Assembly (NCBI GenBank): GCA_038127095.1
Contig: JAYPGZ010000001.1
Span: forward strand, 72,205 to 136,204
From: Candidatus Roizmanbacteria bacterium
GTDB taxonomy: Bacteria > Patescibacteriota > Microgenomatia > UBA1406 > HO2-37-13b
DNA length: 64,000 nucleotides
Reading direction: 5' to 3'
In this document: in pieces, positions 9,365-46,026 of the stretch
Position numbering within the stretch: the stretch's first letter is position 1
Layout: every line of letters starts with the position of its first letter
Translations under genes and position numbers: made by a program
The notes under the pieces: generated by a model
Told to the model about the DNA's origin: nothing
What the model saw: only the letters and a program-made list of their open reading frames with translations
Database searches by the model: none

Positions 9365-11911
9365 ATGAGTAACGCTGAATTATCACAATTTCTCCCATCA
9401 TACCTCGTTCCTCTTTTTTCGCATAGCAATATTAATTATTTACAGATCATATTACCAGCATTTATTGTTGGAACAATAATACTAACGGTATTAATTAAAG
9501 TAATACGTTTGAGATTCGTTATTCATAAGCCTTATACGCTCCTTGAAGTAAAACCGGTATATAAAACATTGCAGAGTCCTTTGTCTACACAGCGCTTGTT
9601 TACTGTCCTACATTCACTTGAAAAACATGCTTCGCTTACAGAGAGTCTGTTTGGAGTAAAGCAGACTGTAAGTTTTGAACTGATTTCCGACAAGGAGAAA
9701 GGTATAAGGTATATTATTCGGGTTCCAGCAAATAAAATCTCACTTATCAAAAAAACCCTACTTTCCTATTTACCAGGAATTGAGGTGCAAGAGACTGAGG
9801 ATTTTTTACCGAATAGTTTCGTTCAACTGCTAGAAAATAAATATTTCGCTGTAAAGGAGCTAAAACTTCCCAAGCCCTATGTAATCCCGCTTCAGAAGCA
9901 AGATAAACTTGATCAGCATGACCCAATCGCATATTTGACCGGTCATATGACCAAGCTTAAAACAGGCGAATTGGCCGGTCTTCAGATTGTAAATACGCCT
10001 ATTCTGCAGAGAACACACAAATCAATACACAGTCATATATCGAGACTTAAAAATCTCATGATGTCAGGGATCGATTTAAGAAAAGAACTGTATAAGGGAC
10101 GATTCCACAAGCTTTATAGTGCATTGGAGTTTATGATTCAGGGTGAAAAGAAGGAAACAATCAGTCAATCAAGGAGAGAGTTATATGAAGCTATTGAGGA
10201 CAAAATAAACGAGCCTTTGTATGAATGTACAATCCGCTTATTCGTATTAGCAGACAGCAGATTATCAGGTATTAGTCGCATGAATGGATTGCAGTCATCA
10301 TTTGATACGTTTGCCTCAGCTCATCAGTCATTTACAGTAAAGCATATATTTCTCACAAAGATTAATGGTAATATTTTGAATAAGATCCGGTTTTATTTTA
10401 TTAGTAACAGACTGCTTTCATTTACGCAAAACCCTGTTCTATCGGCATCTGAGCTTTCATCGCTATATCATCTACCATACACCGCAACAACCAAAACAGA
10501 GGATTTGATTAATGTTAAGAGTCCAAAGCTGCCATCACCACTCCCTTTAAAAAGCTCGGTAAACAATCTAGATATGGTTTTTGCCCATAACACATATGGT
10601 GAAACAACTGTTCCCATAGGCCTTACACTCGAGGAGCGCAGACGACATATGTATATCATTGGAGCAACGGGTACAGGAAAAACAACGGCCTTGTTGCACA
10701 TGATTCATCACGACCTTTTAAAAGGGAGTGGTGTTGCCATCATTGATCCTCATGGTGATCTCACACAGCGACTGCTTGGAGTTATTCCAAAAGAGAGAAT
10801 ACAAGATGTTGTATATTTCAATCCGTACGATATTGAGCAGCCGGTCGGGTTAAACATCCTTGAACTTTCTGATAATCACAGTGAGGTTGAAACACAGCGC
10901 GAAAAAGACATGATTGCGTCGAGCATGATATCTATTTTCCATAAGCTCTATCCTCCCCGCTACACAGGCCCTCGTATGGAGCATATTTTAAGAAATACGG
11001 TCCTTACGGCGCTTGAACTTGAGAGTCCCACACTACTTACCGTGCACAAGTTGCTCACCGATAAAGATTTCAGAAAGAAAATTGTAGCAACACTTCCGAA
11101 AGGAGTCCTTAAGGATTTCTGGAATAATGAGTTTGGCAAGTTGGGTAGTTTTCAGAAAGCTGAACAGATAAGCCCTATCACAAATAAACTTGGCCGCTTT
11201 CTTACTACTTCAATTACCCGCAATATCCTTACACAACCTGAATCAAAACTGGACTTTACCGATATTATGAATAACAAAAAGATTCTGCTTTGTGACCTGT
11301 CAAAAGGAAAAATAGGCGAGGATACTTCGTCCTTCTTGGGAAGCCTTGTTGTTGCAAAGATCCAACTTGCTGCCCTTAAGCGGGTTGATATACCCGAGAA
11401 TAGGCGCACAGACTTCTTCTTATATATCGACGAGTTTCAGAATTTTGCCACACCAGCCTTTGCACAGATTTTGTCAGAGGCAAGAAAATATCGACTAAAT
11501 ACCATTCTTGCTCATCAGACAATTTCACAAATCGAGGATAAGGATCTGCTGAAGGTAATACTGGCAAACGTGGGGTCCATAATATCATTTAGGACAAGTA
11601 ATCCTGCTGATGAAGATATGATGCTTCCGTTATTTGCTCCAGAGGTTGAGAAGTATGAGATATCAAACCTTCCCTCGTATCACTTTTACATGAAAATTAA
11701 TGCAATTACTCCTCAGAATGCATTTACGGGAGAGATTGATAAGTTTATCGCCGATGATGGAAAGGATGCAAGAAAGTTAGTCATTAAAAACTCACAAGAA
11801 AAATACGGGGTAAAAATACAAGCTAGCAATGATAACAGAGTCTCAACCTTAACGGCAGATAAAATTACTCCAAATGAAAAGGAGCAGACCACTGCAAGAG
11901 CACTTTCCTGA
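9365..11911 (+). CDS. VirD4/TraG-like type IV coupling protein ATPase with long N-terminal extension
   Basis: N-terminal TM helix; Walker A IIGATGTGKTTALLHM followed by IIDPHGDL (the DPxGE-type motif shared by VirD4/VirB4 families); Walker B LYIDEFQNF; ...ILAHQTISQ. Confidence 0.6.
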   Translation: MSNAELSQFLPSYLVPLFSHSNINYLQIILPAFIVGTIILTVLIKVIRLRFVIHKPYTLLEVKPVYKTLQSPLSTQRLFTVLHSLEKHASLTESLFGVKQTVSFELISDKEKGIRYIIRVPANKISLIKKTLLSYLPGIEVQETEDFLPNSFVQLLENKYFAVKELKLPKPYVIPLQKQDKLDQHDPIAYLTGHMTKLKTGELAGLQIVNTPILQRTHKSIHSHISRLKNLMMSGIDLRKELYKGRFHKLYSALEFMIQGEKKETISQSRRELYEAIEDKINEPLYECTIRLFVLADSRLSGISRMNGLQSSFDTFASAHQSFTVKHIFLTKINGNILNKIRFYFISNRLLSFTQNPVLSASELSSLYHLPYTATTKTEDLINVKSPKLPSPLPLKSSVNNLDMVFAHNTYGETTVPIGLTLEERRRHMYIIGATGTGKTTALLHMIHHDLLKGSGVAIIDPHGDLTQRLLGVIPKERIQDVVYFNPYDIEQPVGLNILELSDNHSEVETQREKDMIASSMISIFHKLYPPRYTGPRMEHILRNTVLTALELESPTLLTVHKLLTDKDFRKKIVATLPKGVLKDFWNNEFGKLGSFQKAEQISPITNKLGRFLTTSITRNILTQPESKLDFTDIMNNKKILLCDLSKGKIGEDTSSFLGSLVVAKIQLAALKRVDIPENRRTDFFLYIDEFQNFATPAFAQILSEARKYRLNTILAHQTISQIEDKDLLKVILANVGSIISFRTSNPADEDMMLPLFAPEVEKYEISNLPSYHFYMKINAITPQNAFTGEIDKFIADDGKDARKLVIKNSQEKYGVKIQASNDNRVSTLTADKITPNEKEQTTARALS

Positions 11912-11942
11912 TACAATCACTTGCATTTTAACAGACAATTTG

Positions 11943-12770
11943 TTATTCCTCTGTCTTCTCAAGACGTCCGATAAGCATCTCCAGCTCATTAAGAAACGGA
12001 TGATCCCATTTTCGTTGAGCCATTTTGAGAACCTCTTTTTCAAACCACAACTTTTTATCTTTTCCGCGATTGAATTTTTTCCACAGAGCCGCCCCCTCTT
12101 TATCATATTGAGTAAAAAATGACCGTAGATTAACTATTTTGTCTGCAATGCATACAGCGATTGCTTTTTCTCCACCAGCCTCAACCGATCGGATATACTT
12201 CTCTTTTTTCTTTTCCCAGTCCCTTTTATCAGACAGCTGAGCATCGTTTGATACCGCTTTTACAATCCGAAGCACCTCACTGCCACAGGCTTTTTCAATC
12301 TCAGCCTCGGTGCAATCAGTGTCTTCGAGGAGATCATGGCATAAGCTTGCTGCTATAACTTCAACAGGAAACTTTTGCCGCCACCAGAGTAAATGACTGA
12401 TGTCAAGCAGGTGTTCCATATCCGGGTGATCATCGCCTTTTCGTCGAAGTGGGCCATGATAAATAAGTGTCAACTCAAGGGCTTTTTTTACCATCGGGTC
12501 CAATAAGACCATACTGGCACGAAATTGTCCGCGACTTTTTTTGGATAATATTTCGTAGTCATATCCACAATCCTCAGCAACATTAAACCATGCATTATAT
12601 GACTTCGGACTATCATTATCGCGCATGAATAACTCAATAGCACGTGTTACTAAATGTGCCAGATTATCGCTCTTTTCCACTACTGAGTACTTTTCATCAT
12701 CATATATATCAGCATTAGGTATGGAGTCGAGAAGATCAATTTTGATCAAAAAGTATTGCATATAATTCAC
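11943..12770 (-). CDS. HD-domain (p)ppGpp hydrolase of RelA/SpoT type (small alarmone hydrolase-like)
   Basis: HD motif LCHDLLEDTDCTEAEI plus downstream conserved block (...IADKIVNLR...) typical of the Rel/SpoT hydrolase domain; no synthetase domain. Start possibly at an internal Met (MVLLDPMVKK). Confidence 0.6.
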   Translation of the reverse strand: MNYMQYFLIKIDLLDSIPNADIYDDEKYSVVEKSDNLAHLVTRAIELFMRDNDSPKSYNAWFNVAEDCGYDYEILSKKSRGQFRASMVLLDPMVKKALELTLIYHGPLRRKGDDHPDMEHLLDISHLLWWRQKFPVEVIAASLCHDLLEDTDCTEAEIEKACGSEVLRIVKAVSNDAQLSDKRDWEKKKEKYIRSVEAGGEKAIAVCIADKIVNLRSFFTQYDKEGAALWKKFNRGKDKKLWFEKEVLKMAQRKWDHPFLNELEMLIGRLEKTEE

Positions 12771-12904
12771 CCCCTTTTTGTAAATAAACTTGGGGCTGCA
12801 ATGGACGCGGTTGAAAGTATGTCTTGGGTCGTGAAGTCAACCACCGCTAAAGCCAATATAAGTATAACAGGATGCATAGATTATAACAACAGCGTGTTAT
12901 AAAC

Positions 12905-13567
12905 CTATTTCGACCTGTATCTACTGATAATGCTACTTAAAATTTGCTTTCCCTGTTTGATACTTTTGGATAAATCACTCTCTCTCGTGCCAACTATCAC
13001 ATTGAGTTCATGGGGGTCTTTCCTAAATATTTCAGTGAAAACCCTGTATACAAACTCTGTAATTGCTTCATTGTCTCTGCCAAAATCCGCATTAAGTGTG
13101 TCAAATTCATCCGCCACTTTCGGTTTATGATGATAGTAACAATATTTTTTTATGGTGATTTCACCCTCAGTAAAGGTAAAACCCAAATCTTCAAGAAGTT
13201 TTCTCGTCTGTTTCATATATGGGAGGTGTCTGTTTCCGGGTAATATTGGAAAATCCATAATCATGCTATGTCGCTCTATAGCAAACTGAACAAACTCTCC
13301 TTCTTCATCTCCAACTTGGAATATGACATAGGTAACTCCTGTTAAAGGCTTTAGGATTTCAGTAAGTACAAAGCTAATATAGCCTCTTGGGTCATCGAAT
13401 TGTGATTGTTTTTCAATAAGACGATTTTGAAGCAGCTCTACGCGTTCATCCCGATCAAAGTACTTTGCAACCAGAATTTTATCTTTATATATTACATGAA
13501 AGTATTTACTAGGGTGCAAAGCGTTCAGGTACTGAGCAATTTTATCTTTCAATCTCTTATTATTCAT
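12905..13567 (-). CDS. hypothetical protein
   Basis: 220-aa ORF, 8-nt overlap with the upstream protease gene. Confidence 0.45.
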   Translation of the reverse strand: MNNKRLKDKIAQYLNALHPSKYFHVIYKDKILVAKYFDRDERVELLQNRLIEKQSQFDDPRGYISFVLTEILKPLTGVTYVIFQVGDEEGEFVQFAIERHSMIMDFPILPGNRHLPYMKQTRKLLEDLGFTFTEGEITIKKYCYYHHKPKVADEFDTLNADFGRDNEAITEFVYRVFTEIFRKDPHELNVIVGTRESDLSKSIKQGKQILSSIISRYRSK

Positions 13568-15083
13568 AAAACCAAAGCCAACTCGGATCCTCGACTTCTT
13601 TAATTCTTGGCTGCCATAGTTTTAGTTTACCGTCAATTTCTTTTACTTCCCACCAACCCTCAAAATATTTATATACAATCTCATCATCAATTAAGTCTTT
13701 TGTCGAAAGCTTTACATTTACTACATTTTCTCGATCTGGATCGTCTTTAATCTTAATAACTGTTGTGTCAAGTAATGATTCATATCCAATTTTCCAGTTT
13801 TCAATACTACCCCCTTTTAGGAAATTTTCAGATAATAATGCATATGCTTCTTCCATTTTCCTAATTTTAAGATAGTTATAAAACGAGGAAACGGCATCAA
13901 GCGGGCTCTTATTTGGTTCAAATACAATTCTTTTAACATCTTTCAAAGGATCATCGTTTGAAAGCATCTGAACCCACTTATTCTGAGCAGATTTGGCAGA
14001 TATTGCAAGTCCGAGTCCGGCTGTGCCGGCGGTATTTATTCCCACCACTTCGCCGCAAACATTAACTAAAGGTCCACCACTCACGCCTTGATTGAGAGTA
14101 CCATCTATCTGTATATATTCTATGCCGTCTGCTTTAGAATGACGTCTGGCAGCCATTTTGCCGGTATTAACACTAATGTCGCCGATTAGCGTACCTCCAA
14201 ATGGGTAACCTAGGGCGATAAGCTCTTCTGTAAGTTCAAGACTGTCTGAATCTCCCCAAATAATAGATTTCATGGGGCGCTTGATCGCAAGTATCGCTAA
14301 ATCAGCCTGCTTATCAGCATACTTAATCTCTGCAGTCTCAAATGAATTATCGGGAAATACAACTTTGGGACTTGGCTCAAATTCGATGACATGAAAATTA
14401 GTCATTATCAACCCATTCTCCTTAATTACAAAGCCAGAACCTTCAGCTTCCCCACCAACAATACGAACTATAGAATTTTTAAGCCGAGCGATAGATTCTT
14501 TTTCGTTACATGCTACTTTACTACTTCCACCAAATCTCATCTCAATTGTATCAAGGCGTCTGTTGATATTGTTTATTGACCATATGGTGTATATTCCTAC
14601 TGTACATATGAAGATAGCAAAGACTATTTTGCCGAATGTAGTAAAAAGGCTACTCTTATTCGAATATGATATATACCATTTATAAAAATCATGAATAAAG
14701 TCAACTATAACTATAAGTATGAGTAATAGCGAGATGACCGTGGTCAAATTAACAATGTCTGTTAGAACATTAAAAACAATATTTTTACTTCTAGCAAAAG
14801 AGTCATAATTGGAGCCAGCATAAAATGCTAAACCAAGAAATAGAAATCTTAAAAGAATATGAACTTTACGATACAAAAAAAGTCCTATTTTAATACCTAC
14901 AATAAACAAAAAGAATAAGTAAAGAACGGAAAGTGGTAAATATAAATAGCTATCTTCAAGCTTGAAAAAATATACAGAAAAGCTTATAAGAATAGCTCCG
15001 AGAATAGATACCATAAATACTGGTTTTTTAAAACGCTGAAAGCCTAGTTGTAAACCTCTTTGCGCACTTCGGAGTCTTGACAT
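13560..15083 (-). CDS. membrane-anchored trypsin-like (S1/DegP-type) serine protease with extra C-terminal domain
   Basis: About 6 N-terminal TM helices. Then GSGFVI...GLIMTNFHVI (catalytic His), ...DLAIL (catalytic Asp) and GVSGGPLV (GxSGG catalytic Ser), followed by a ~120-aa C-terminal domain. Confidence 0.6.
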   Translation of the reverse strand: MSRLRSAQRGLQLGFQRFKKPVFMVSILGAILISFSVYFFKLEDSYLYLPLSVLYLFFLFIVGIKIGLFLYRKVHILLRFLFLGLAFYAGSNYDSFARSKNIVFNVLTDIVNLTTVISLLLILIVIVDFIHDFYKWYISYSNKSSLFTTFGKIVFAIFICTVGIYTIWSINNINRRLDTIEMRFGGSSKVACNEKESIARLKNSIVRIVGGEAEGSGFVIKENGLIMTNFHVIEFEPSPKVVFPDNSFETAEIKYADKQADLAILAIKRPMKSIIWGDSDSLELTEELIALGYPFGGTLIGDISVNTGKMAARRHSKADGIEYIQIDGTLNQGVSGGPLVNVCGEVVGINTAGTAGLGLAISAKSAQNKWVQMLSNDDPLKDVKRIVFEPNKSPLDAVSSFYNYLKIRKMEEAYALLSENFLKGGSIENWKIGYESLLDTTVIKIKDDPDRENVVNVKLSTKDLIDDEIVYKYFEGWWEVKEIDGKLKLWQPRIKEVEDPSWLWFYE

Positions 15084-15123
15084 GATTGAAGTATACTACA
15101 AGAGAAGAGTCTTTTAGAAAATA

Positions 15124-15894
15124 CTATGTATCTAAATTAGACTTATGCCTTTGAACAGCAATACGGTAGTTGCAATAATCGCAATTCGGGCTGGAGGGAG
15201 GAAGATCATCTCGATCTAGGCAATCCTTAATATTCAGAATAATTTTATCAATCCATTTGGTTGATCCTTCATAGGGAATAAGGGTAATATCAAATTCCAA
15301 TTTTCCATCAAAAGCCTTCATGTCTGTTTTGCCATTACAGTAAACGAAATATCCAGTACTACTTACTTTAAATCCTTTTTGTCGAAGCAGCCATTGATAC
15401 ACTTCCATCTGTCTTTTGTATCCGTCCTGCCAATCTTTATCAAGCTCAGTTATCTCCTCATTCTTACTGGTTGATTTATAATCAACAACGATATATTCAT
15501 CTTTTGAATTAATCCATAAGTCATCAATTGCTCCGGTAATAATGAGGTTTGTTGGTTTATGATGAAATTGTATTCCTTTAAAGTTCTCTCTCCACTCATT
15601 GAGATCATCATGCGCAACTGGTCGTGCATCAACGCCATATTTGGTTATCAATGGGTGAGCGTCGCCATTCATTCGATGAATATCAAATTCAAGCTTGAGG
15701 AGGTGGTCAACGGCACTATTGAGAGCGAAGGGGAATCCAGGTGGTCTACCCGTACCAAGTCGGCGATCCATATAAAAACAAAATTGACATTCAAGAAAAA
15801 GATCGATTTTAGAACGGCTTATTTTAAATGGCTCTGACGAGCCTGGATTGTATAAGGAATTGTTACTTCTTTGTGGGTTGTAATATTGCGACAT
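15124..15894 (-). CDS. PD-(D/E)xK nuclease, Cas4/RecB-like with four cysteines
   Basis: CQFC near the N-terminus, ...IDDLW...IVVDYKS (D...D/E-x-K core), C-terminal CDYC; arrangement typical of Cas4-like Fe-S nucleases. Confidence 0.55.
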   Translation of the reverse strand: MSQYYNPQRSNNSLYNPGSSEPFKISRSKIDLFLECQFCFYMDRRLGTGRPPGFPFALNSAVDHLLKLEFDIHRMNGDAHPLITKYGVDARPVAHDDLNEWRENFKGIQFHHKPTNLIITGAIDDLWINSKDEYIVVDYKSTSKNEEITELDKDWQDGYKRQMEVYQWLLRQKGFKVSSTGYFVYCNGKTDMKAFDGKLEFDITLIPYEGSTKWIDKIILNIKDCLDRDDLPPSSPNCDYCNYRIAVQRHKSNLDT

Positions 15895-15937
15895 GATTTT
15901 ATCCTTAGTTTTTAGCTAAACGCAAATTTCAATTAAA

Positions 15938-18610
15938 TTATCGACTGCATAACTGCTTAAAACTCATATTTTGTAAAATAGCTGTATGTGGCAAAAGAAT
16001 ATATTTCCATGATTTTCCTCGATTAGCTAAATTATATTTAGTTGATGCTTCACAAAACTTTTTTCCGGCTTCAGATTTTTCATTTACATCATCATTGTTT
16101 ACATCTTTTTCTGCTTTAATTTCAACAAGATATATATCGTCTCTCGTTTCTACGACAAAATCAGGTATATACCGCTGTGAATTTCTTTTCCACCAAATTT
16201 GGAATTGTGATGAGGCAGGACGTAGCCATCGTATAACATCAGGATCCGCCTCAAGTACTGCTGCAAAGTCCTTCTCAGATTTTGAATCAAATTTATACAA
16301 GTTATGACAGGCTTTCTTAAAGCCACCAAAGACTTTTGATGGGATTGTGTTAGTGGGTGAAATAGTCTCTGTAAAATGGTGGATACTATCAGCTGTATAT
16401 TTGGAAAAATTATGTGGTTCAATTCTAGTAAATGGATATACTTCCGGCTCCTCGTAATTTCCTGTTTCCAAGAAGAAGTGTTGTTGTAGCTGAGCGTAAA
16501 TAAATTGACCTATTTCACGCTTATGATAAAGAACGATATTCTTTAAGTCCTCTTCATTCCGTCCAGTACCTAACTTGGAGATTGCTTGATGAACTATTTT
16601 ATATAATAATGGCGCTTCCCGATCATAATCTACTTCCGGGTAGTTGACAAGTTCATTCAATACGATATTACTCGGTGTGTCGCGCTCAAATCCACTCTCA
16701 TCGTTTTGAAGAATCTCGCTCTGATTAGTTCTCAATGTTCGTCTAACAATTTCTTCAGATACAGGCTGGTAATTTAATCCTTGTACGTCGAGCTCAAAAT
16801 CATTGAATCCTGAACGTACCTCATTGTTCTGTTGCACTAATATACGTGGAATTGGAATAGTTTTAAGTACTAATTCTTCTACTACGGCATCGTATTCTTT
16901 TTTCGCTGCTTCAACTATCTGATTCTTAAATAAACTTTGTTGTGGTGAGCGCTCAATTTGCTCAACCATCCTACTAATAGCTAATCTTTGCACTTCTTCA
17001 CTTTTTAGATCGTCTATGTTCTTAATTTGGCTTCCCAATGAGCTCACAGCGTCAACAATCATGCGCTGAGCGTCTAAATTGAATGTCGCAGATTGTCTGT
17101 CTTTTTCATCAGGAATAGATATGATTTGTTTACTTTTTTCATTAAACGAGGCTTCAAGTGTTGCATGAGAAGTAATAACTTCTTGATCTGCTGGTAGTGC
17201 GTCTGGATCAATCTCAATAATATTTTCCTTTCGAATGATTGAATTTGGATCATTAGCTGCATCAACGATTGCTTGAAAACGATCATGGGCAATAATGGTT
17301 AACTTGTCCACTTTATCAACACCTGTTCTTGCTCCATAAGGAAGTCTTAACCCACGACCAATAGTCTGTTCAGTAAGAATTTGGGAGTTGGCCGCTCGCA
17401 GTGGTATTATGGTGTAAAGATTAGTAACATCCCACCCCTCCTTAAGCATGTTAACATGCACTACGATTTCCACCGTATTATCAGCTTTCTCCAAAGCAAG
17501 AAGTTTTTGGACATTCTCTTCTTTCTCTTCTCCGCGCTGGTTTGAATGGATTTCAATAACCTTTCCTTTATATCTTCTTTCAAAGAATCGTTCGGATTCA
17601 ATCATTTCTCGTATCTCTTTTGCATGCTCTGTATCTTTTGCAACAACAAGTACGAATGGTCGCACTAGCGAATTTCCCGTATCGCGTGAATAAATATCAA
17701 GCGCAACTTTTGTGTCCTCATGTATTCGGACTCCATCTTCTAGCTTGATAAGGTCTAATTCCTTAGGATCATCACGATATTGATCGGGGTTAAAATTTCT
17801 TCGAGTAGCAATCGCTGGTTCTTTTACAAACCCATCCTGGAGTGCTTTTGCTAAGGGGTAGTCATACACAACATTTTTAAATACATTACCCTTATTATCA
17901 ATCGGTGTCGCTGTCAACTCTAAGCCTAAAATGGGTTTGAGTTCATTGATTGCTTTAAGTCCTGCATCTGCGCGATAATGGTGGGACTCATCCATGAGGA
18001 GAACGAGATCCGGTAATTCCGCAAGATAATTGAAGTATGATTCACCTAGATATTCTGATAATCTCTTTATTCGTGGTTCACGACCACCTCGTACTTCAGA
18101 ATTAATTTTCGAAATATTGAATATATTTATACGTATGGTTTCCTCAAGCGAAAGTTGCTGATGTTGTTCGTAAGTATCTCCTGTTACAATGCGCGGACCA
18201 AATACAGCGAGCTCAGAGATTCCTTTAAAAACATATTTTGGGCTCTGTGGATTAGAAAGATCATCAATGAGTTTATTGTAAATTGTCAAATTTGGAGCTA
18301 GTACAAAGAAATTCTTAATGCCCTTTGCAGTATAGAGATAGGCGATAAATGCACCCATTAACCGAGTTTTACCTACTCCAGTTGCCAGAGAAAAACACAC
18401 AGATGGAAATTCACGTTCAAAGTCAGAGCAAGTCGGATAAAGTTCGCGAATCTTAGCTATTTCACTGACAATGTCGGCACCGACTTTTAACTCTAAAGTG
18501 TCAGTAATTTTTTGCAATATTTCCAAGCTCTCTGCCTGAGGCTTACGCAAACTCAATCTATTTTTGATATTAAGTGCTTTATTGTTCATTTTGTTCATCT
18601 TCCAAATCAT
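15938..18610 (-). CDS. res: Type III restriction enzyme Res subunit (SF2 helicase plus C-terminal PD-(D/E)xK endonuclease)
   Basis: Motif I LATGVGKTR, motif II LLMDESHH, helicase C-terminal motifs (TIGRGLR), C-terminal PDFVVETRDD...YLVEIKAEKD nuclease motif; immediately downstream of mod. Confidence 0.75.
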   Translation of the reverse strand: MIWKMNKMNNKALNIKNRLSLRKPQAESLEILQKITDTLELKVGADIVSEIAKIRELYPTCSDFEREFPSVCFSLATGVGKTRLMGAFIAYLYTAKGIKNFFVLAPNLTIYNKLIDDLSNPQSPKYVFKGISELAVFGPRIVTGDTYEQHQQLSLEETIRINIFNISKINSEVRGGREPRIKRLSEYLGESYFNYLAELPDLVLLMDESHHYRADAGLKAINELKPILGLELTATPIDNKGNVFKNVVYDYPLAKALQDGFVKEPAIATRRNFNPDQYRDDPKELDLIKLEDGVRIHEDTKVALDIYSRDTGNSLVRPFVLVVAKDTEHAKEIREMIESERFFERRYKGKVIEIHSNQRGEEKEENVQKLLALEKADNTVEIVVHVNMLKEGWDVTNLYTIIPLRAANSQILTEQTIGRGLRLPYGARTGVDKVDKLTIIAHDRFQAIVDAANDPNSIIRKENIIEIDPDALPADQEVITSHATLEASFNEKSKQIISIPDEKDRQSATFNLDAQRMIVDAVSSLGSQIKNIDDLKSEEVQRLAISRMVEQIERSPQQSLFKNQIVEAAKKEYDAVVEELVLKTIPIPRILVQQNNEVRSGFNDFELDVQGLNYQPVSEEIVRRTLRTNQSEILQNDESGFERDTPSNIVLNELVNYPEVDYDREAPLLYKIVHQAISKLGTGRNEEDLKNIVLYHKREIGQFIYAQLQQHFFLETGNYEEPEVYPFTRIEPHNFSKYTADSIHHFTETISPTNTIPSKVFGGFKKACHNLYKFDSKSEKDFAAVLEADPDVIRWLRPASSQFQIWWKRNSQRYIPDFVVETRDDIYLVEIKAEKDVNNDDVNEKSEAGKKFCEASTKYNLANRGKSWKYILLPHTAILQNMSFKQLCSR

Positions 18611-20366
18611 CTGCCAGATCCTCGGTAAGCTTAATGATGTTTAAATCATAATTATCCTGTCCAAATTCACATCTACCTAAAATTGCTTGTGGGATTTTCT
18701 TAACTGTAATATTAGCGAACTTGTTTTCAATTCCTGGAGAGAAAGACTTAGCACAAATCAAAAGACTTTCATTTTCGAGCATTTTTGCATGGATTGATTC
18801 GAGCTGTTCCATGGTTACAAATGCTGTTGTAACAAAAATGTAGTCAGTTTCTGTAGACTTACCATGCTTCCAATAAACCGATTCATCAGGACTATATTTA
18901 AATGCCTCATGTTTACATACCGCAGCAGCCAACATATTGGAATTATAATTCTCATCAATCACGAAGTTACCAAATGAGTCTTTCCTAAGTAGGCTGGGGG
19001 CAAGGTTATAAAACTTAAATCCACCTCCGCCAGTCCAGTTAACAGATCTTGAGATACCACCTTGATCCTTACCATCTACAACACTTCTAAGACGTAGAAG
19101 GCAATGAGTATAAGCATGCTCACCAAGCTCTATACCAATCCACTTTCTATTCATTTTGTGAGCAACTGCTGAAGTTGTCCCTGAACCTAGAAATGAATCT
19201 AGTACATAATCACTTGGTTCTGTTGTCATCCTTATAATTTTTTCTATCAGTGCTTCAGGCTTTTTACCGTTAGGAAATTCTACTAACCCTTCTTTTGTCA
19301 AATTATTTAAATTTAATCCATCCCAGAAAGTACCCTGTAGATCCTTTTTGTACAGAATGCCATCTTTGATCTCAAGAACATCACTTAACCACGTTATCAA
19401 TCTTAGTTTTTCACCTTTATAAAATTGTTCATAGACCTTTCCTTTATTCTTGCCACTTCTAGGCACATACTCAATTGATATTAGATCTGTCTTATGCCCA
19501 ATTTCATTAACCTTATTAAGAACTCTAACGCGAATTGAGCTTTGAGGCATCGCAGTTGTGAAGATTCTATTGTTGTATTTATAATAAGCTTCTTTTTCAG
19601 ATATATTATTTTCCTTAGCAACTTGTGAAACAGACTTAAATATTGGATTAATCCTTTCATACATCCTAATTTCATTTCCATCACCGTCAGTAGTTGATGC
19701 TATATACTTCTTCTCACCGTCGCTTAATAGAACTGATGTATACTTCCAGCTAATATTATTTGTTTTATAAGATTGTACTAACTCATATATTTCTGTTAAA
19801 TCATATACTCCCTTAAATACACTGAGCATCTGATAGTCTTTTGCAAACAAATGAATAAATTCCACATTTTTTTTAAGTCTTTTGTCCTCTCCACCACCAC
19901 TTGCACCAGCAATATTTTTCATTTTCACCGTAATTGTATTAATAAAATTTGATCTACCAAACACCTCATCCATAAGTACTCTAAGATAAGCTTGTTCCTC
20001 ATCATCAATCTGCACAAATATGACTCCATCCGATGCTAATAGTTGCTTAAGTATCATGAGTCTTGGCTTCATTAAACTCAACCACGTAGAATGTTCTAGA
20101 TTATCATCGTAATGTTCGAAGGCACTGCCAGTATTATATGGTGGATCAATATAAATACACTTTATTTTTCCAGCAAAATCCTGCTCTAAAGCTTTAAGTG
20201 CAAGAAGATTATCACCGTGGATGAGCATATTCTCGGAGTTGGGTTCGCCATAAGATTTCTCAGGATCTTCGATTAGAATTCGTGGCTCTAGTTTTAGCTC
20301 CTCATTCTTACCTATCCATGTTAATTCTAGTTTTTGTTTTGTAGGTTTACTCATAATTATGACCAA
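18579..20366 (-). CDS. mod: Type III Mod subunit, N6-adenine (beta-class) DNA methyltransferase
   Basis: IYIDPPYNTG (motif IV) preceding DSFLGSGTTSAVA (motif I), the beta-class order used by Type III Mod; 32-nt overlap with res. Confidence 0.8.
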   Translation of the reverse strand: MVIIMSKPTKQKLELTWIGKNEELKLEPRILIEDPEKSYGEPNSENMLIHGDNLLALKALEQDFAGKIKCIYIDPPYNTGSAFEHYDDNLEHSTWLSLMKPRLMILKQLLASDGVIFVQIDDEEQAYLRVLMDEVFGRSNFINTITVKMKNIAGASGGGEDKRLKKNVEFIHLFAKDYQMLSVFKGVYDLTEIYELVQSYKTNNISWKYTSVLLSDGEKKYIASTTDGDGNEIRMYERINPIFKSVSQVAKENNISEKEAYYKYNNRIFTTAMPQSSIRVRVLNKVNEIGHKTDLISIEYVPRSGKNKGKVYEQFYKGEKLRLITWLSDVLEIKDGILYKKDLQGTFWDGLNLNNLTKEGLVEFPNGKKPEALIEKIIRMTTEPSDYVLDSFLGSGTTSAVAHKMNRKWIGIELGEHAYTHCLLRLRSVVDGKDQGGISRSVNWTGGGGFKFYNLAPSLLRKDSFGNFVIDENYNSNMLAAAVCKHEAFKYSPDESVYWKHGKSTETDYIFVTTAFVTMEQLESIHAKMLENESLLICAKSFSPGIENKFANITVKKIPQAILGRCEFGQDNYDLNIIKLTEDLADDLEDEQNEQ

Positions 20367-20827
20367 TTGTAAAGTTTTAGCCTATTCCTAGGAATAGTAT
20401 ATCCAAGCGTTGTACCGCGACATTTAACATGTAACCGAGTATTACTATTCCACGATACAATCACACTTGCCACTTCTTTATCGAATAGTAGGCGCATTAA
20501 ATCTATATCATGCCATTCCAATGTACAGACTTCCTGATCCGCACAGACTAAGCATATAAGTAAATTTTTATCGGTTTGAATTTCTCGTAGTTTTACGATA
20601 TCAGACTCAGTAAATGTAAAAGAAGAATAATGTCTTCCTTTTCTACCAATTCTTACACCTGAAGTTGATTTGACAAAGATTTTATGTGTTATGTGGTTAT
20701 CAGTTATTTCGTAGGCGCTCCACTCAAAATCATCGCTCTTCTCAAGCAGCTTTACGTTCACAAGTGTGCTTCGAATTATTTGACATAACACTGCTCCATG
20801 GTAAAGTTCAAATTTTGATATAGCCAT
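20357..20827 (-). CDS. hypothetical protein between SNF2 helicase and mod
   Basis: 156-aa ORF, 10-nt overlap with mod, 9-nt gap to the SNF2 gene; no recognisable motif. Confidence 0.5.
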   Translation of the reverse strand: MAISKFELYHGAVLCQIIRSTLVNVKLLEKSDDFEWSAYEITDNHITHKIFVKSTSGVRIGRKGRHYSSFTFTESDIVKLREIQTDKNLLICLVCADQEVCTLEWHDIDLMRLLFDKEVASVIVSWNSNTRLHVKCRGTTLGYTIPRNRLKLYNWS

Positions 20828-20836
20828 TTTAATTAA

Positions 20837-23797
20837 TTAAATGATCTGCCACCTTATAGTAAACAGCGGTTCTAGTTTAGATTGCTGGGTCAATCGAGAT
20901 TCAACTGTCTCAAGCAACTTCTCTTTCTTTAATTCTACATCATCCTGTGTTTCAAATAATCTCTTCCTCATCTCATTCCTCTTCTTCTCCCAATCTTTGA
21001 TTTCGCGTTGAGCAATCAATTTTTCATCAAGATTTAATATTTTTTTTGCATTTGTTTTTGCAGTTTTTATATCAATATCAAGTTTCCTTAAATCGAGTTC
21101 CAATGCCTTTTTAACATCCTCAGCCCAGTTGTCCAACTTATCTACTTCATGATCAAAAAAGCTACCATTACGTTCAGCAATCTGACTAGTTGTAATCTTT
21201 AGATATTTATTCTCCAGTTCATCGATTTCTGTTTTTAGTTTTGGTGAGATAGCATATTGTCCTCCGATTGTAGCTGACAATTGAAATATCTTCTTAATAA
21301 CCTCTGGTTCAAGTACATCACCATCATCAGTTATAGCTGAAAACAGAATATGATCTTCTGACTCAAATGACTCAACTGTCAAGTTTGAGATTTTCAGAAT
21401 GCCCCCTTTACCTATGAGTGGCTGTAATACAGTAATAATTGTTTGGTTGTTAGAGTAGTTAAAAGCTACTTCTGCTTCATCTGACGGTCGAGATTTAATG
21501 TCATTCAATATCCTTTGAGCTAATGAATGAGCGGGTCTATACACATGTGCGTCCTCAATATTTTTTCCAATCTTATATGGGCCCGGATCAATATTCTCGC
21601 CTTCAAAAGGGTTTCGTTTGAGAACAAAAGAATATTCATTGTCTGAAAAATCAGCATTGTCTCCCAAATAGAATTTAGTTGTATCCCACAACCATCTATT
21701 ATAAGTATCTAAATACATGGCGCTTTCTCTTAAGTTGATTTTAAGTTTTTCGTGAACTTCAGCATCGAAGTTTTCGAGAAGTGTCTGCCGTGTATCTGAA
21801 AGATTATTCTTAATACTCTCATCCATTTCCTCTTGAAGGGCATCAAACGCATTATTGATTTCTTCAGTTGTTCTACATTCTTGATATATGTTGGCTATGC
21901 GCTTTTCAAAATCTACTCCAGACTCAATTGTTCCCAATACCTCGTCACTTGCACCAAAAACCCCTTTGAAAAGTTTGAATTTTTGATCAAGCAGATCATA
22001 AACCCTGCTATCAGCAGCATTTTTTCGGTTTACAAAGTTTATAACCACAACATCATGTTTTTGACCATATCGATGGCATCTACCAATACGTTGCTCGATA
22101 CGTTGTGGATTCCACGGCAAGTCATAGTTAATAACTAAAGAGCAGAATTGTAGATTTACCCCTTCAGCCGCAGCTTCAGTTGCGATCATAATTTCAGCTT
22201 CATCTCGAAAATACTCAATGAGTGCGGATCGCATATCAGCAGTTTTTGAACCTGTAATTTTGTCTGTATCCTTATTTTCCTCTAACCATTTAGCGTAGAT
22301 CTCCTTTGATTTAGGATCATTATTTGAACCATTGAAAAGTACAATTTTGCCTTTATAGCCATTCTCCGGCAACAGTGTTTCAAATAGGTACTTCTGTGTA
22401 ATAGTTGACTCAGTGAAAATGATTGCTTTCTGTTTAGCTCCCAATTCATGAGTCATCTCAAACCCCTTTTTAAGCGCAATAAGTAGCGCATCGCCCTTTG
22501 AATTGTTGAAGATTGCCTTGGCGAGGTCTCTAAATTTTTTAAGATCAACTTTCTCCTTTTCCATCAATTGAATATCTTCTTTAGTAAATTCTTTAGTTTT
22601 CTTCCCTTTTTCTTCATTTTCATCCTCATCTTCCTCATCATCAATCCACTCATCCGATATTTCATCAAAACCTTCAAAGTTCTGAGCCAAATCTGTGGTA
22701 TCGAATTCATTTTGAGTACTTTTTAAGGATATTTTAGCTTCATCTATGAGATAGCCCAACTTGATAACAAGATTATTTAATGTGCTTGCAATAGCAAAGG
22801 ATGAAGAGGCTAACAACTTGCGCAGTATTAGTGTCATTAGTTGACGCTGGCTAGAAGGTAGCGCATAGAGCGTTGGCCTTTGTAGGTATTCGGACATCCC
22901 ATCGTATAGCTCTACTTCCTGTTTTGTAGGTGTGTAATCCTGAGTGATGGGGCGTCTCTCGGTGTAATTGATATATTCTAAAACTTGCCTACGCAGGGTT
23001 CGGATACATACTACTTCTAAACGTTTTCTAAGGTCTAAAAACATTTCCTGTTTTGGCTCAACAAGTCCGACTTCATTTTCGTAAATATCTTGTTCACGTG
23101 AAACTCGAGCGTAGTTTGCCTTAAAACTTCTAAGGTCCCCAAAAACATGATCATCAATAATGCTTACCAGACCATATAATTCCAATAAAGAGTTCTGCAG
23201 TGGGGTAGCAGTAAGTAATATTTTTGGGACACCAGCAAGAGATTCCTTAATATCTCTAGCAATCTTATTACTTGTTTTATAAACATTTCGAAGTCTGTGT
23301 GCCTCATCAATAACTGCTAGGTCCCATTTTGTTTGCTTAACATATGGCGCCTTAGTTCTGGCAAAGTGATATGAACAGATTACAATCTTATCGTCTTGAT
23401 TAAAGGGATTAAGATTGCCATCTTTAATACTTTGATTAAATGATTTTGTCTCAAGAATTAAGGATGGCAAAAAAAACTTTTCCTGCAACTCAGTATTCCA
23501 CTGTTTACGCAAAGCAGCTGGTACAATGAGTAATATATTTCTCTTTCTTTCAGCCCATTTTTGAGACAATACCAACCCAGCCTCGATTGTTTTGCCCAAA
23601 CCTACTTCATCAGCAAGTATGGCTCCCCTGGAAAGAGGCGATTTAAATGCAAATAGCGCAGCTTCTATTTGGTGAGGATTGAGATCAACTTGAGCATTTG
23701 ATAGTGTTGAAGAAAGCTTTTCTAGACTATCGGATGAACACCGTTTTGTCAGCTCATAGGCAAAATATTTTGCATGATATGGAGTAATTTTTGTCAT
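20837..23797 (-). CDS. SNF2-family (Rad54/Swi2-like) helicase with ~400-aa uncharacterised C-terminal region
   Basis: ILADEVGLGKTIEAG (motif I), VIDEAHRLRN (DEAH box), ...LLTATPLQN, QRIGRCHRYGQ (motif VI); an acidic E/D stretch separates the two RecA lobes. Confidence 0.8.
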   Translation of the reverse strand: MTKITPYHAKYFAYELTKRCSSDSLEKLSSTLSNAQVDLNPHQIEAALFAFKSPLSRGAILADEVGLGKTIEAGLVLSQKWAERKRNILLIVPAALRKQWNTELQEKFFLPSLILETKSFNQSIKDGNLNPFNQDDKIVICSYHFARTKAPYVKQTKWDLAVIDEAHRLRNVYKTSNKIARDIKESLAGVPKILLTATPLQNSLLELYGLVSIIDDHVFGDLRSFKANYARVSREQDIYENEVGLVEPKQEMFLDLRKRLEVVCIRTLRRQVLEYINYTERRPITQDYTPTKQEVELYDGMSEYLQRPTLYALPSSQRQLMTLILRKLLASSSFAIASTLNNLVIKLGYLIDEAKISLKSTQNEFDTTDLAQNFEGFDEISDEWIDDEEDEDENEEKGKKTKEFTKEDIQLMEKEKVDLKKFRDLAKAIFNNSKGDALLIALKKGFEMTHELGAKQKAIIFTESTITQKYLFETLLPENGYKGKIVLFNGSNNDPKSKEIYAKWLEENKDTDKITGSKTADMRSALIEYFRDEAEIMIATEAAAEGVNLQFCSLVINYDLPWNPQRIEQRIGRCHRYGQKHDVVVINFVNRKNAADSRVYDLLDQKFKLFKGVFGASDEVLGTIESGVDFEKRIANIYQECRTTEEINNAFDALQEEMDESIKNNLSDTRQTLLENFDAEVHEKLKINLRESAMYLDTYNRWLWDTTKFYLGDNADFSDNEYSFVLKRNPFEGENIDPGPYKIGKNIEDAHVYRPAHSLAQRILNDIKSRPSDEAEVAFNYSNNQTIITVLQPLIGKGGILKISNLTVESFESEDHILFSAITDDGDVLEPEVIKKIFQLSATIGGQYAISPKLKTEIDELENKYLKITTSQIAERNGSFFDHEVDKLDNWAEDVKKALELDLRKLDIDIKTAKTNAKKILNLDEKLIAQREIKDWEKKRNEMRKRLFETQDDVELKKEKLLETVESRLTQQSKLEPLFTIRWQII

Positions 23798-23882
23798 AAA
23801 TTTTTTGTACTTGTTATGCTTTTCACTTTGGCCTCATTTTATCAAAAATCGGCTCCTAATACAAAGGGCATAGAGGTTTGAA

Positions 23883-24542
23883 ATGTGCTATAGTATTTAT
23901 ATGACGCCAACTACATTGGTCATTGTGATATTTGCGATCGTAGCTATTTTTGTTTACCTCATATTAAAACTCATCGATGCACTTATCAGGATCTCCCAAC
24001 GAATTGAATCAACCAATACACATCTTGATGAGATACATATTGAAATGGCAGAGCTTGCACAAATCTTAAGTACAACATTGCTGGGGCTTAAGAGTAAAGA
24101 TGATGATCTTGATTCACGCGTTGAGGATCTTGAAAATATTGCTGACCCAACATACGATGAAGATGATTTAGATCCATTTTATGATCAGGCTGTAAAAATT
24201 GTAACTGAATCAGGAAGTGCTTCTGCATCATTGCTTCAACGTCGACTCGACATCGGCTATGCCCGAGCCGCACGATTAATCGATGTGCTTGAATCAAAAG
24301 GTATTGTGGGACCAGCTGAAGGCAGTAAGCCACGTCAGGTTTTCTCATCAGCAACGGAAGCTGAGCCCTTATTTGAACAAGCAATTAAACTTGGTCAAAA
24401 AGAAGGCAGAATTTCTCCAGCAATGTTACAAAGAAATCTACAGATTGGTTATGCCCGAGCTGCACGTATTATGGACTTACTTGAAATTGAAGGGTATATT
24501 GGGCCCGCAGATGGAGCAAAGCCACGACTAATTTTAAAGTAA
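23883..24542 (+). CDS. membrane-anchored protein with two tandem FtsK gamma (KOPS-binding winged-helix) domains
   Basis: N-terminal TM helix, coiled region, then LLQRRLDIGYARAARLIDVLESKGIVGPAEGSKPRQV and MLQRNLQIGYARAARIMDLLEIEGYIGPADGAKPRLI, each matching the FtsK gamma-domain consensus; no FtsK motor domain. Confidence 0.6.
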   Translation: MCYSIYMTPTTLVIVIFAIVAIFVYLILKLIDALIRISQRIESTNTHLDEIHIEMAELAQILSTTLLGLKSKDDDLDSRVEDLENIADPTYDEDDLDPFYDQAVKIVTESGSASASLLQRRLDIGYARAARLIDVLESKGIVGPAEGSKPRQVFSSATEAEPLFEQAIKLGQKEGRISPAMLQRNLQIGYARAARIMDLLEIEGYIGPADGAKPRLILK

Positions 24543-24543
24543 T

Positions 24544-24948
24544 ATGCAACTAAAGAGAGTTCTTATCCTTGAAGATGACCTCGAAACCGTTTCTGTGCTA
24601 TTGGGTAAACTTGCAAGCCTTGAAAATGAACTCATGAAATCTGATAGGAAAGTTGAGTTTTCTTTCATGGTGATGTCCGAATATACAGATGTTGATACGA
24701 TGATAAACGGGCTGGATGCTGAATCGTTTGATATTATTCTGCTTGACAGAGATTGTAAGGTTGCCGGCTCATTCCACATTTTAGATATCGAAAAATTTGG
24801 GGTAGATAAAGTGATCTCTATATCTTCAACACCTCCATATAATGAGGACGCAAAGCAACGAGGAGTTAAACGGGTAGCGCATAAGGACTATGCGAATCTC
24901 ACTACATTTGCAGATGCGGTAATGGATCACATTAAAGAGCTTATATAA
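24544..24948 (+). CDS. stand-alone CheY-like receiver domain protein
   Basis: VLILEDD...IILLDRD...(putative phospho-Asp)...ISISS...K pattern of response-regulator receivers; 2-nt gap from the upstream gene. Confidence 0.5.
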   Translation: MQLKRVLILEDDLETVSVLLGKLASLENELMKSDRKVEFSFMVMSEYTDVDTMINGLDAESFDIILLDRDCKVAGSFHILDIEKFGVDKVISISSTPPYNEDAKQRGVKRVAHKDYANLTTFADAVMDHIKELI

Positions 24949-24949
24949 C

Positions 24950-24985
24950 TACCATCGCCATCGATGGTAATTTATTCGATCTTTT
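24950..24985 (+). terminator. candidate rho-independent terminator
   Basis: Perfect 8-bp stem TACCATCG/CGATGGTA with loop CCAT, then T-rich tract ATTTATTCGATCTTTT, immediately after the stop codon. Confidence 0.5.
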
Positions 24986-25097
24986 AGCCACGAATCACTT
25001 GCATTTTGTTTCCTCTTTATCCTTATAAATAAGGAAAGGGAAACACTTTCCTCCCTTATCGTATATAATAGGGAGGATTAAGGTGGGCTAAACTACA

Positions 25098-25871
25098 ATG
25101 ATACATACAAACATAACTAACAAACAAAAAGAAATACTTCTTCTTCTCTACCGATTCCGGTTTCTCAACAGACAGCACATACAAACACTCCTTCGTCATA
25201 AAAACAAAAAGAATATAAACACGTGGCTCAAAGATCTCACAGAAAAAGGATACATAAACAGAATATTCAAACGATCATGGACAGAAAACTCAGTACCGGC
25301 AAAATACTACATCGCACTCAATGGCATACGATATCTTAAAACCAATCCAGACTGTAAAAAAGAATATCTTCGTAAGCTTTATCGTGAAAAGGACCGCTCA
25401 CAAAAATTTATCGATAAATGTCTCTTTATTGCAGACATTTACATTCGGTTTTTGAAAGACTCTGTGGAAAATATCACCCATTATCAATTTTCCACACAAT
25501 CTGACTACACGCCCGGCAGCATCGTAACCGACATCATGCCCGATTTTCTGGTCATTACAGGAAACAACAATGTAAAACAATACCATCTCTTCCAGCTATT
25601 TCCTGAGGGAACGCCCCGTTTTGCAGTTCGCAAGCGTATTGAGCAATATATGACATTTTTAACTGAGGAAGACGGCACGCACTTAAATGCTGTTCTTCAC
25701 CTTGTGGCACATACTGAGGCATTATATGTATATTTAACTCGCCACACTGAAAGAATCCTTGAGGATGAGAGTATATCGGTACCAATTCGAGTACTATCGT
25801 ATGATCAGATCGCACAGCACGGATTACAGCTTGAAGACCCGGAAACAACTGATGAGTCAGAACTCGAGTAG
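25098..25871 (+). CDS. replication-relaxation (Replic_Relax-like) winged-helix protein
   Basis: N-terminus LTNKQKEILLLLYRFRFLNRQHIQTLL... resembles Replic_Relax family proteins of conjugative/mobilisable elements; assignment by pattern only. Confidence 0.45.
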   Translation: MIHTNITNKQKEILLLLYRFRFLNRQHIQTLLRHKNKKNINTWLKDLTEKGYINRIFKRSWTENSVPAKYYIALNGIRYLKTNPDCKKEYLRKLYREKDRSQKFIDKCLFIADIYIRFLKDSVENITHYQFSTQSDYTPGSIVTDIMPDFLVITGNNNVKQYHLFQLFPEGTPRFAVRKRIEQYMTFLTEEDGTHLNAVLHLVAHTEALYVYLTRHTERILEDESISVPIRVLSYDQIAQHGLQLEDPETTDESELE

Positions 25872-25877
25872 CACATC

Positions 25878-28967: not shown

Positions 28968-28977
28968 TGGAACGCTC

Positions 28978-29089
28978 TCAGGGGACGGAAACCGGTATTG
29001 TCATTGTGATTGGACGCATTGTTCCAATTGACGTTCGACAAACCACCATTATCGGAATTACCACCGATGAGACGGCTATCGGAACCGAA
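28978..29089 (-). repeat. DGR template repeat (TR), sense on minus strand
   Basis: 112 nt identical to 29472..29583 except at 21 positions, all of which are T on the plus strand (A on the minus-sense TR). Non-coding: lies between avd and the target gene's 3' end. Confidence 0.85.
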
Positions 29090-41111: not shown

Positions 41112-41115
41112 CAGT

Positions 41116-41868: not shown

Positions 41869-41997
41869 TATGATTGCTAAACTGGTAGATAAAATTAAGG
41901 GAATCTTGAGGACTATTTTTCCTCGAAAGGGAGATATTGAGTGGAAGGAAATTAGTGGAATGGTGCGAGAGAAGAAATCAAAGAACTAAAATTATAT

Positions 41998-46025: not shown

Positions 46026-46026
46026 C

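Follow-up and report, generated by a model that had tools for sequence, protein, structure and literature searches.

A stretch of 64,000 nucleotides from a Candidatus Roizmanbacteria genome (assembly GCA_038127095.1, contig JAYPGZ010000001.1, forward-strand positions 72,205 to 136,204; the whole stretch is called the window here) contains a minus-strand array of seven genes. The first four encode a DrmD-like SNF2 ATPase, a 156-aa protein, and Mod and Res proteins of the kind found in Type III restriction–modification (R-M) systems. The locus is the four-gene version, belonging to the Candidate Phyla Radiation (CPR), of an SNF2–Mod–Res system, and is followed by three unrelated genes. Judged by homology and gene order, SNF2, Mod and Res appear to be a co-inherited trio that is widespread, three-part and apparently unnamed. 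The functional unit is probably (at about 70%) a three-component, ATP-dependent Type III-type R-M system, carried as cargo of a CPR integrative/conjugative element and with the SNF2 protein as an obligatory partner.

A first-pass annotation of the window had proposed that all seven genes form one composite defence operon, in which a nuclease and a membrane protease act as an effector arm of the R-M pair. The seven co-directional open reading frames (ORFs) all exist, but only six of them lie within the interval 13560–23797 that had been given for the operon; the seventh occupies 12905–13567. Gaps of 40 nt or less had been stated, which is nearly right: from SNF2 to the last ORF the junctions are +9, −10 (or +2 with an alternative ATG start for Mod), −32, +43, +40 and −8 nt. 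Promoter-like and terminator-like sites within the array were not above chance in a scan of 11800–24200, so co-transcription is neither shown nor excluded. The domain calls for SNF2, Mod, Res, the Cas4-like nuclease and the protease were borne out by Pfam, PADLOC and NCBIfam. The composite itself was not: set against more than 110 related loci, the array falls into two parts, and no homologues of the three distal genes lie within approximately 10 kb in the nine distinct loci with a close 156-aa homologue or at the inspected plasmid and E. coli loci. The gene order that was sought in other genomes exists in part. The three distal genes are not syntenic, while mod and res do not travel alone; they are accompanied by SNF2 and, in CPR, by the 156-aa gene as well.

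The SNF2–Mod–Res trio

The first gene of the conserved system encodes the SNF2 ATPase (986 aa; 20837–23797, minus strand). The protein matches Pfam SNF2-rel_dom (5.5e-34) and Helicase_C, and the PADLOC model for DrmD (PDLC02619, 2e-207). Residues 30–974 align with positions 21–859 of the 868 in NCBIfam DISARM_DrmD_b (NF038318), at 690.6 bits where the cut-off is 950. Its C-terminal region had been described as novel; instead, the protein is DrmD-like along its whole length, and the last 347 aa alone retrieve 119 homologue clusters. The ATPase motifs are intact (GLGKT66, DEAH164, TATP196 and QRIGR569), and the closest solved relative is RapA, for the ATPase core only. Orthologues with 38–83% identity precede Mod and Res in all related loci; on plasmids and in E. 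coli, the Prokaryotic Genome Annotation Pipeline (PGAP) labels them just 'SNF2-related protein'. Upstream of the SNF2 gene in the window is a divergent intergenic region of 85 nt, and no small helix-turn-helix (HTH) gene is found there.

Mod (595 aa from a TTG start; 18579–20366, minus strand) is predicted to be an N6-adenine methyltransferase of the beta class, its target-recognition domain lying in the middle. On an identical contig the gene was called independently from an ATG at 20354 (591 aa), which is the likelier start. The protein matches PF01555 (N6_N4_Mtase, 7.5e-47) and PADLOC MTase_III (3e-163 over residues 9–593); among the 25 PADLOC families shown for it, only MTase_III, MTase_II and orphan-methyltransferase models appear. 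DPPY70 comes before FLGSG388 in its motif order. Among 14 orthologues, the centre of the protein (residues 181–360, approximately) has a mean pairwise identity of 3–16%, against 42–75% in the flanks, a pattern that reads as the signature of a swappable target-recognition domain.

The res gene (15938–18610, minus strand) lies directly downstream, its start overlapping mod by 32 nt. It encodes a protein of 890 aa with a superfamily 2 ATPase and a C-terminal PD-(D/E)xK nuclease: ResIII (1e-21), Helicase_C and, at residues 805–855, Tn7_TnsA-like_N. The match to PADLOC REase_III (PDLC03648) reaches 4.5e-182. Both the ATPase motifs (GVGKT78, DESH207, TATP233 and QTIGR415) and the nuclease motif (IPDF...VEIK, that is PD...ExK) are kept. 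Models, motifs and gene order therefore agree with the earlier identification of Mod and Res as a Type III-type pair.

Where else is the trio found? Neighbourhoods of representatives of the 156-aa clusters, together with 11 GTDB loci, were searched by tblastn with all window proteins. Homologues of the window proteins in general are almost exclusively from uncultured Patescibacteria/CPR genomes. In nine distinct loci there is a homologue of the 156-aa protein with at least 44% identity. Mod and Res lie downstream of it in all nine, which upholds the earlier placing of the 156-aa gene with the Mod–Res pair, and an SNF2 gene lies upstream in eight. The four genes stand in one unbroken row, from SNF2 through the 156-aa gene and Mod to Res, in six of these neighbourhoods (L001, L002, L004, L008, L014 and L015) as well as in the window. 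No homologue of the Cas4-like, protease, 220-aa or HD genes was detected by tblastn within 10 kb in the nine loci; the genes that follow Res there include an operon for cyclic-oligonucleotide-based antiphage signalling (CBASS), a HARE-HTH gene, an amylase gene and a radical-SAM gene. In one of the nine (L007/L011; JAUYKW010000023.1, 7050–12656) SNF2, the 156-aa gene and Mod are intact and only the first 80 or so residues of Res are left. This may be a decaying system that keeps an orphan methyltransferase. A second group of metagenome loci, L029–L032, carries SNF2 (74% identity), Mod and Res (76% identity).

The same trio occurs on plasmids. A tblastn search of PLSDB with SNF2 found 46 records matched over the full length at 43–54% identity, and a search with Res found 23 records at 39–44% identity over at least 97% of the length. 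Few lineages lie behind the 23 records: 15 of them are Salmonella IncF plasmids that are almost identical, Aeromonas and Roseomonas contribute two each, and Deinococcus, Sphingopyxis, Ketogulonicigenium and Paracoccus one each. Rhizobium and Planctomycetes plasmids carry the trio too. In every plasmid neighbourhood inspected, the genes lie on one strand in the order [HTH or WYL]–SNF2–{variable}–methyltransferase–{variable}–DEAD/DEAH helicase, and an SNF2 gene stands upstream of this clade of Res at every locus inspected. The three genes abut in Ketogulonicigenium and Paracoccus, with gaps of 0–4 nt, which marks SNF2–Mod–Res out as the minimal system; in Rhizobium, a DUF262 gene is inserted between mod and res. 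Over the aligned regions, Mod and Res from plasmids and chromosomes are 40–58% identical to the window proteins. Where SNF2 is closer to its window counterpart, Res tends to be so too (Spearman 0.75 between the two identities over 22 loci, duplicates included).

The trio is also present in 30 of 5,426 complete Escherichia coli genomes. The one copy inspected, in strain CFSAN064036 (L115; NZ_CP028166.1, 3086131–3095600), lies in a chromosomal island adjoining tRNA-Sec and has an insertion sequence (IS) and an Abi gene as cargo between SNF2 and Mod. The RefSeq names in this copy are generic, except for a small HTH gene overlapping the SNF2 start, which PGAP labels MAD1; the same HTH protein (WP_054113027.1) precedes SNF2 on the Salmonella plasmid pR18.1595_113k (L104; 6232–16247 for the trio and its HTH gene). 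The plasmid and E. coli loci inspected have no homologues of the distal genes within approximately 10 kb, and the 156-aa gene is absent from all plasmid and E. coli copies. Thus, a broad clade joins a DrmD-like SNF2 gene to a Type III-type mod–res pair on plasmids and genomic islands of CPR, Proteobacteria, Deinococcota and Planctomycetota. Because E. coli and the Salmonella IncF plasmids have natural copies, the system can be tested directly.

The 156-aa protein and the slot between SNF2 and Mod

What is the second gene of the CPR version? It occupies 20357–20827 (minus strand), a variable slot between SNF2 and Mod, where it appears to be an accessory of the CPR lineage. Pfam, PADLOC and NCBIfam assign its product to no family. 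In the predicted structure, the fold is that of an Hjc-like PD-(D/E)xK protein, with the alpha-beta-beta-beta-alpha-beta order of restriction-endonuclease-like domains, and the fold matches in BFVD are weak ones to PD-(D/E)xK proteins, Hjc and RecU. There are 24 close clusters, among which E7, E40 and K53 are invariant, and a full HMMER scan found 276 clusters at 50% identity in this small-protein family. Identity to Hjc, RecU and I-Ssp6803I is 7–13%. In contrast to these enzymes, the family has additional invariant residues, H10 and D76, and a CxxC...C cluster; its genetic context is R-M, whereas that of Hjc-type proteins is recombination.

The slot can hold other genes or nothing at all. Its contents elsewhere include an IS element with Abi, a set of AIPR, HTH and VapC genes, an AAA ATPase with DUF4276, and a gene for a 527-aa hypothetical protein. 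In L029–L032 it is empty or filled by a Bro-N-like gene or another unrelated gene, and a hidden Markov model of the 156-aa family finds no member in these loci. A weak phage relative of the protein exists (phrog_28860), and one distant homologue, in L016, adjoins a PLD-SNF2 helicase and an Eco57I-type methyltransferase. The 156-aa protein is most likely a lineage-specific accessory, which would either bind DNA structures or serve as a second nuclease. Whether it would be a subunit of the system or cargo within it stands at about even odds.

The distal genes and the surrounding mobile element

Downstream of Res are three genes that, by their distribution, appear to be neighbours and not components of the system. 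The first encodes a Cas4-like PD-(D/E)xK nuclease (256 aa; 15124–15894, minus strand) that is ubiquitous in CPR. It matches PDDEXK_1 (3.9e-14) and has two terminal cysteine pairs, C36/C39 and C238/C241. Like the RecB-family nucleases of the Cas4/AddB type, it combines a RecB-like PD-(D/E)xK core with these cysteine pairs. It differs from CRISPR Cas4 in scoring below the cut-off of TIGR00372 (34.4 bits, cut-off 65), in lacking cas neighbours and in its core-gene-like conservation across CPR phyla. When clustered at 90% identity, the proteins that are 63–89% identical to the window protein make up at least 8,000 clusters, and those named come from Pace-, Woese-, Magasanik- and Taylorbacteria.

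The surroundings of the Cas4-like gene were surveyed in 83 loci (L021–L103) with a simple ORF caller and clustering. Its neighbours fall into hundreds of unrelated clusters, and no Cas proteins are among the neighbour families of these loci. Of 71 upstream genes, 70 point the same way as the Cas4-like gene, and 42 of the 70 are separated from it by 20 nt or less. Among 60 non-redundant upstream genes examined with Pfam, defence-type families are common: RVT_1 (6), SMC_N (5), ResIII (4) and HsdR (3), in addition to Eco57I-type methyltransferases and a TdeIII-type restriction enzyme. Sigma-70 (3), pyruvate kinase, PMSR and BipA represent housekeeping genes in the same position. The 47 non-redundant downstream genes are mostly housekeeping or miscellaneous. 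As a compromise, the Cas4-like gene may be described as a conserved CPR gene beside variable and often defence-laden upstream cargo, and its upstream side is a candidate defence-cargo hotspot in CPR.

The second distal gene (507 aa; 13560–15083, minus strand) encodes a polytopic-membrane serine protease of the HtrA/Trypsin_2 type (Trypsin_2, 2.4e-26; GVSGG333), with four or five transmembrane segments ahead of the protease domain; the two counts give opposite orientations. It is a singleton at 90% identity. Of the loci fetched, L021 alone has a homologue (60% identity over residues 158–506), which comes directly after a Cas4-like gene and behind a PLD-SNF2 helicase and Eco57I-type methyltransferase system. 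The third distal gene, a 220-aa ORF (12905–13567, minus strand), lies beyond the interval first given for the operon. It has no match in Pfam, PADLOC, NCBIfam or PHROGs, forms a singleton cluster, and has no tblastn match in any fetched locus.

Other systems and genes were noted in these neighbourhoods. PLD-SNF2 helicases with Eco57I/MmeI-type methyltransferases, in systems that are MANTIS/Gao_RL-like or related to bacteriophage exclusion (BREX), are found at L016 (3713–17001), L021 (1–5998) and L045 (3830–9122); one adjoins the distant 156-aa homologue and an AIPR gene, and the other two immediately precede a Cas4-like gene. In the window, the array is followed downstream by an HD_4 (RelA/SpoT-hydrolase-like) gene (275 aa; 11943–12770). 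In L044 and L101, homologues with 30–32% identity follow the Cas4-like gene, a few genes further downstream.

The cassette is surrounded by a mobile-element backbone (6688–8478, 9365–11911, 23883–26294 and 38210–43446). It includes two large serine recombinases, one overlapping a tRNA-Leu call (6765–6849) and one near tRNA-Val (45952–46026), along with genes for a TrwB/TraG-type coupling protein, a tandem FtsK-gamma protein, Replic_Relax, RadC and a VirB4-like ATPase. No convincing att-like direct repeats were found to enclose this element.

The window also contains a diversity-generating retroelement (27556–32017). Its reverse transcriptase gene (RT; 27556–28608, plus strand) is followed by bAvd (28608–28967, plus strand) and a template repeat (28963–29089). 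The variable repeat (29458–29584) is at the 3' end of the target, an AAA_5 gene encoding 853 aa (29456–32017, minus strand). All of the approximately 14 core mismatches change a plus-strand template T (an A on the coding strand of the target) to A, G or C; the target gene and the sense of the template repeat share one strand, and the RT and avd genes are on the other. Two genes have a Transglutaminase core. One (884 aa; 32022–34676) is paired with the retroelement target gene, and the other (611 aa; 50749–52584) is located between uvrC (49457–50752) and uvrA (52594–55470).

Alternative readings, proposed mechanism and known systems

Could the distal genes belong to the system after all? If the seven genes formed one composite, with an abortive-infection effector arm made up of the Cas4-like nuclease and the membrane protease, then the co-directional array with gaps of at most 43 nt would be explained, as would the one recurrence of the Cas4-like and protease genes, in L021, behind another R-M-like system that contains SNF2. 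The cassette copies of L029–L032 also lie upstream of a Cas4-like gene. However, the other distinct copies of the cassette all lack the three distal genes, the Cas4-like gene has neighbours of every kind, including housekeeping genes, a Trypsin_2 gene is found downstream of it in just one of the 47 non-redundant loci, and the 220-aa ORF has no relatives. The composite is therefore highly improbable. On a narrower proposal, many CPR defence cassettes have the Cas4-like nuclease as a common downstream partner, for example in DNA-end processing or as an effector nuclease. The closely spaced, co-directional upstream genes are consistent with this, as are their enrichment in RT, SMC-like ATPase, Res, HsdR, Eco57I-type methyltransferase and TdeIII-type genes, and the frequent contexts with type IV secretion or recombinase genes. 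Against this, housekeeping genes also occupy the upstream position and dominate downstream, identities of 63–89% across phyla fit a core gene, and most loci have the SNF2–Mod–Res cassette with no Cas4-like gene; such a partnership is unlikely.

A different question is whether each of the first two genes acts on its own. The SNF2 gene might have an independent single-gene function, as a stand-alone defence helicase or a plasmid-maintenance factor, and have no more in common with Type III R-M than an integration hotspot. Single-protein SNF2 defences are known, for example HmaA (PMC11232893). Furthermore, IS, Abi, AIPR, toxin–antitoxin and AAA+DUF4276 modules are tolerated between SNF2 and Mod while the flanking genes are apparently kept, and the Res clades can be exchanged. 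An accidental association of this kind is hard to reconcile with an order and strand conserved across at least six phyla, with the presence of SNF2 upstream of every inspected member of the Res clade, with minimal forms whose genes abut or overlap, with the correlated divergence of SNF2 and Res, or with a shared upstream HTH gene that often overlaps the SNF2 start. Independence of SNF2 is thus improbable. The case of the 156-aa gene is closer. As an independent toxin, second-line defence or selfish gene in the cargo slot, it would resemble Abi, AIPR and VapC elsewhere, and it would be expected to be missing from L029–L032 and from the plasmid and E. coli copies, to share its slot with heterogeneous genes, to have distant homologues alone in unrelated contexts, and to have a weak phage relative. 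But it stands beside Mod–Res in all nine loci with close homologues, is separated from its neighbours by approximately 10 nt or less at both window junctions, and has been kept over 44–83% sequence divergence; moreover, the distant homologue in L016 adjoins a different SNF2-type helicase and methyltransferase. Independence is a serious possibility here, although it falls short of an even chance.

Several observations weigh against the four-gene, three-component R-M reading itself. A phmmer search of all PDB chains with Res (E ≤ 0.01) found no solved Type III Res, its sole match being a weak one to Type I HsdR (3h1t, 2.4e-4), and the score against NCBIfam PRK15483 (Type III endonuclease) is 30.9 bits with a cut-off of 564. 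The missing match to a solved Type III Res means that classical EcoP15I mechanics may not apply. The same SNF2 clade is accompanied by a different Res clade in L014/L015 (approximately 36% identity), and by more distant ones in Rhizobium and Planctomycetes; the tie may be between SNF2 and Mod rather than between SNF2 and Res. In the 156-aa family, residue 51, the expected 'D/E' of (D/E)xK, is F, Y or V in all 24 sequences, unlike the second metal-binding acid of Hjc, RecU and I-Ssp6803I. The assignment of catalytic residues follows the secondary-structure register and not a residue-level superposition, and with a hydrophobic residue where an acid is expected two positions before K53, the protein is no more than a candidate nuclease. 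Distant homologues in L017–L020 are solitary genes in contexts other than R-M. Finally, the cassette and an RT gene are located directly upstream of a Cas4-like gene in L029–L032, as the cassette is in the window, and a looser link to the Cas4-like gene is therefore possible.

How might the three-component system work? What the analysis shows is which genes are present, their homology and order, the intact motifs and the fold modelled for the 156-aa protein; all biochemical roles are inferred, especially that of SNF2. With its hypervariable central domain, Mod would read a short sequence, and by adenine methylation it would mark self DNA. Res would use ATP-dependent communication and, with its intact PD..ExK nuclease, cut DNA that is not marked. 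SNF2, as the obligatory third partner of this Mod/Res clade, may be a translocase or remodeller of double-strand DNA. It could load or activate the Mod–Res complex on incoming DNA or, alternatively, clear bound proteins from that DNA. Action on double-strand DNA is suggested by the analogy with RapA-like translocases and by the joint genetic contribution of drmD and drmMI in class 1 of the restriction–modification-associated defence island system (DISARM). The slot between SNF2 and Mod would accept additional small genes, the Hjc-like 156-aa protein being the CPR version.

More tentatively, a DrmD-like SNF2 and an adenine methyltransferase might constitute an ancient and portable 'mark-and-sense' module that serves alternative effectors, such as the Type III Res clades or DrmABC. 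The slot would then be a docking site for second-line defence genes that are co-expressed with the R-M core or triggered by it, and a mechanistic requirement for the SNF2 translocase would define a distinct class of R-M with three motor components. This broader proposal is doubtful at present.

The usual view of Type III R-M is of a machine made of two proteins: two genes are enough, an asymmetric site is hemimethylated, and cleavage requires ATP and a pair of unmodified sites in inverse orientation. The cassette shares with the prototypes EcoP1I and EcoP15I the position of mod directly upstream of res and the architecture of both proteins, but it differs in that a DrmD-like SNF2 gene always precedes mod in this clade and that there is a cargo slot between them. 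The constant presence of the SNF2 gene suggests that two genes may not suffice here.

The resemblance to class 1 DISARM (DrmD, DrmMI, DrmA, DrmB and DrmC), which the first-pass annotation had remarked on, is real for SNF2, which aligns to DrmD_b along its full length but scores below the cut-off of that model; in both systems an adenine methyltransferase gene follows. We know of no role established for DrmD in DISARM. DrmA, DrmB and DrmC are absent, as had been noted: no DUF1998 (DrmB), PLD (DrmC) or second, DrmA-type helicase was found in the ORFs of the array or its flanks. In the cassette, a Type III Res is in the effector position and Mod belongs to PF01555 and not to the DrmMI family, for which NCBIfam gave no match at E ≤ 0.01. 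DrmMI has been described as pfam13659, and joint deletion of drmD and drmMI nearly abolishes the protection of class 1 DISARM against one phage (10.1101/2021.12.28.474362).

BREX-related and MANTIS/Gao_RL systems combine a RapA-like SNF2 or other ATPase with a methyltransferase and a nuclease and are based on methylation (PMC12839542; 10.64898/2026.09.23.753747). RapA, the closest solved relative of the SNF2 core of the window, is likewise a point of contact with BREX type 3 (BrxHII) and MANTIS. By contrast, those systems use PglX/Eco57I-type methyltransferases with PglZ/BrxC, or the AAA+ proteins MtsA/MtsB with the PLD-helicase MtsD, which are absent here. Identity with MANTIS/Gao_RL ('dual ATPase') was rejected, because the AAA+ MtsA, PglX-like MtsC and PLD-helicase MtsD are different proteins.

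The PGAP label 'MAD1' in E. coli raised the question of identity with the methylation-associated defence system (MADS). The HTH gene of the E. coli and Salmonella relatives is MAD1-like, whereas the window has no such HTH gene. MADS is an eight-gene operon with a kinase, an ATPase, a nuclease and a methyltransferase, in which MAD6–8 are mandatory and MAD1 is a widespread regulator; the paper mentions no SNF2 or helicase component (10.1101/2023.03.30.534895). This identity was also rejected, given that the MAD6–8 core is absent and that MADS has no helicase.

A system of a DrmD-like SNF2 with Type III Mod and Res is undescribed in the full-text literature searched, which lay outside subscription-only titles, and NCBIfam (June 2026) has no specific names for the trio proteins. 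The results also correct annotation practice: tools of the PADLOC type would call such loci 'DrmD' plus 'RM type III', and the apparent extra 'effector' genes of the window are ordinary neighbours.

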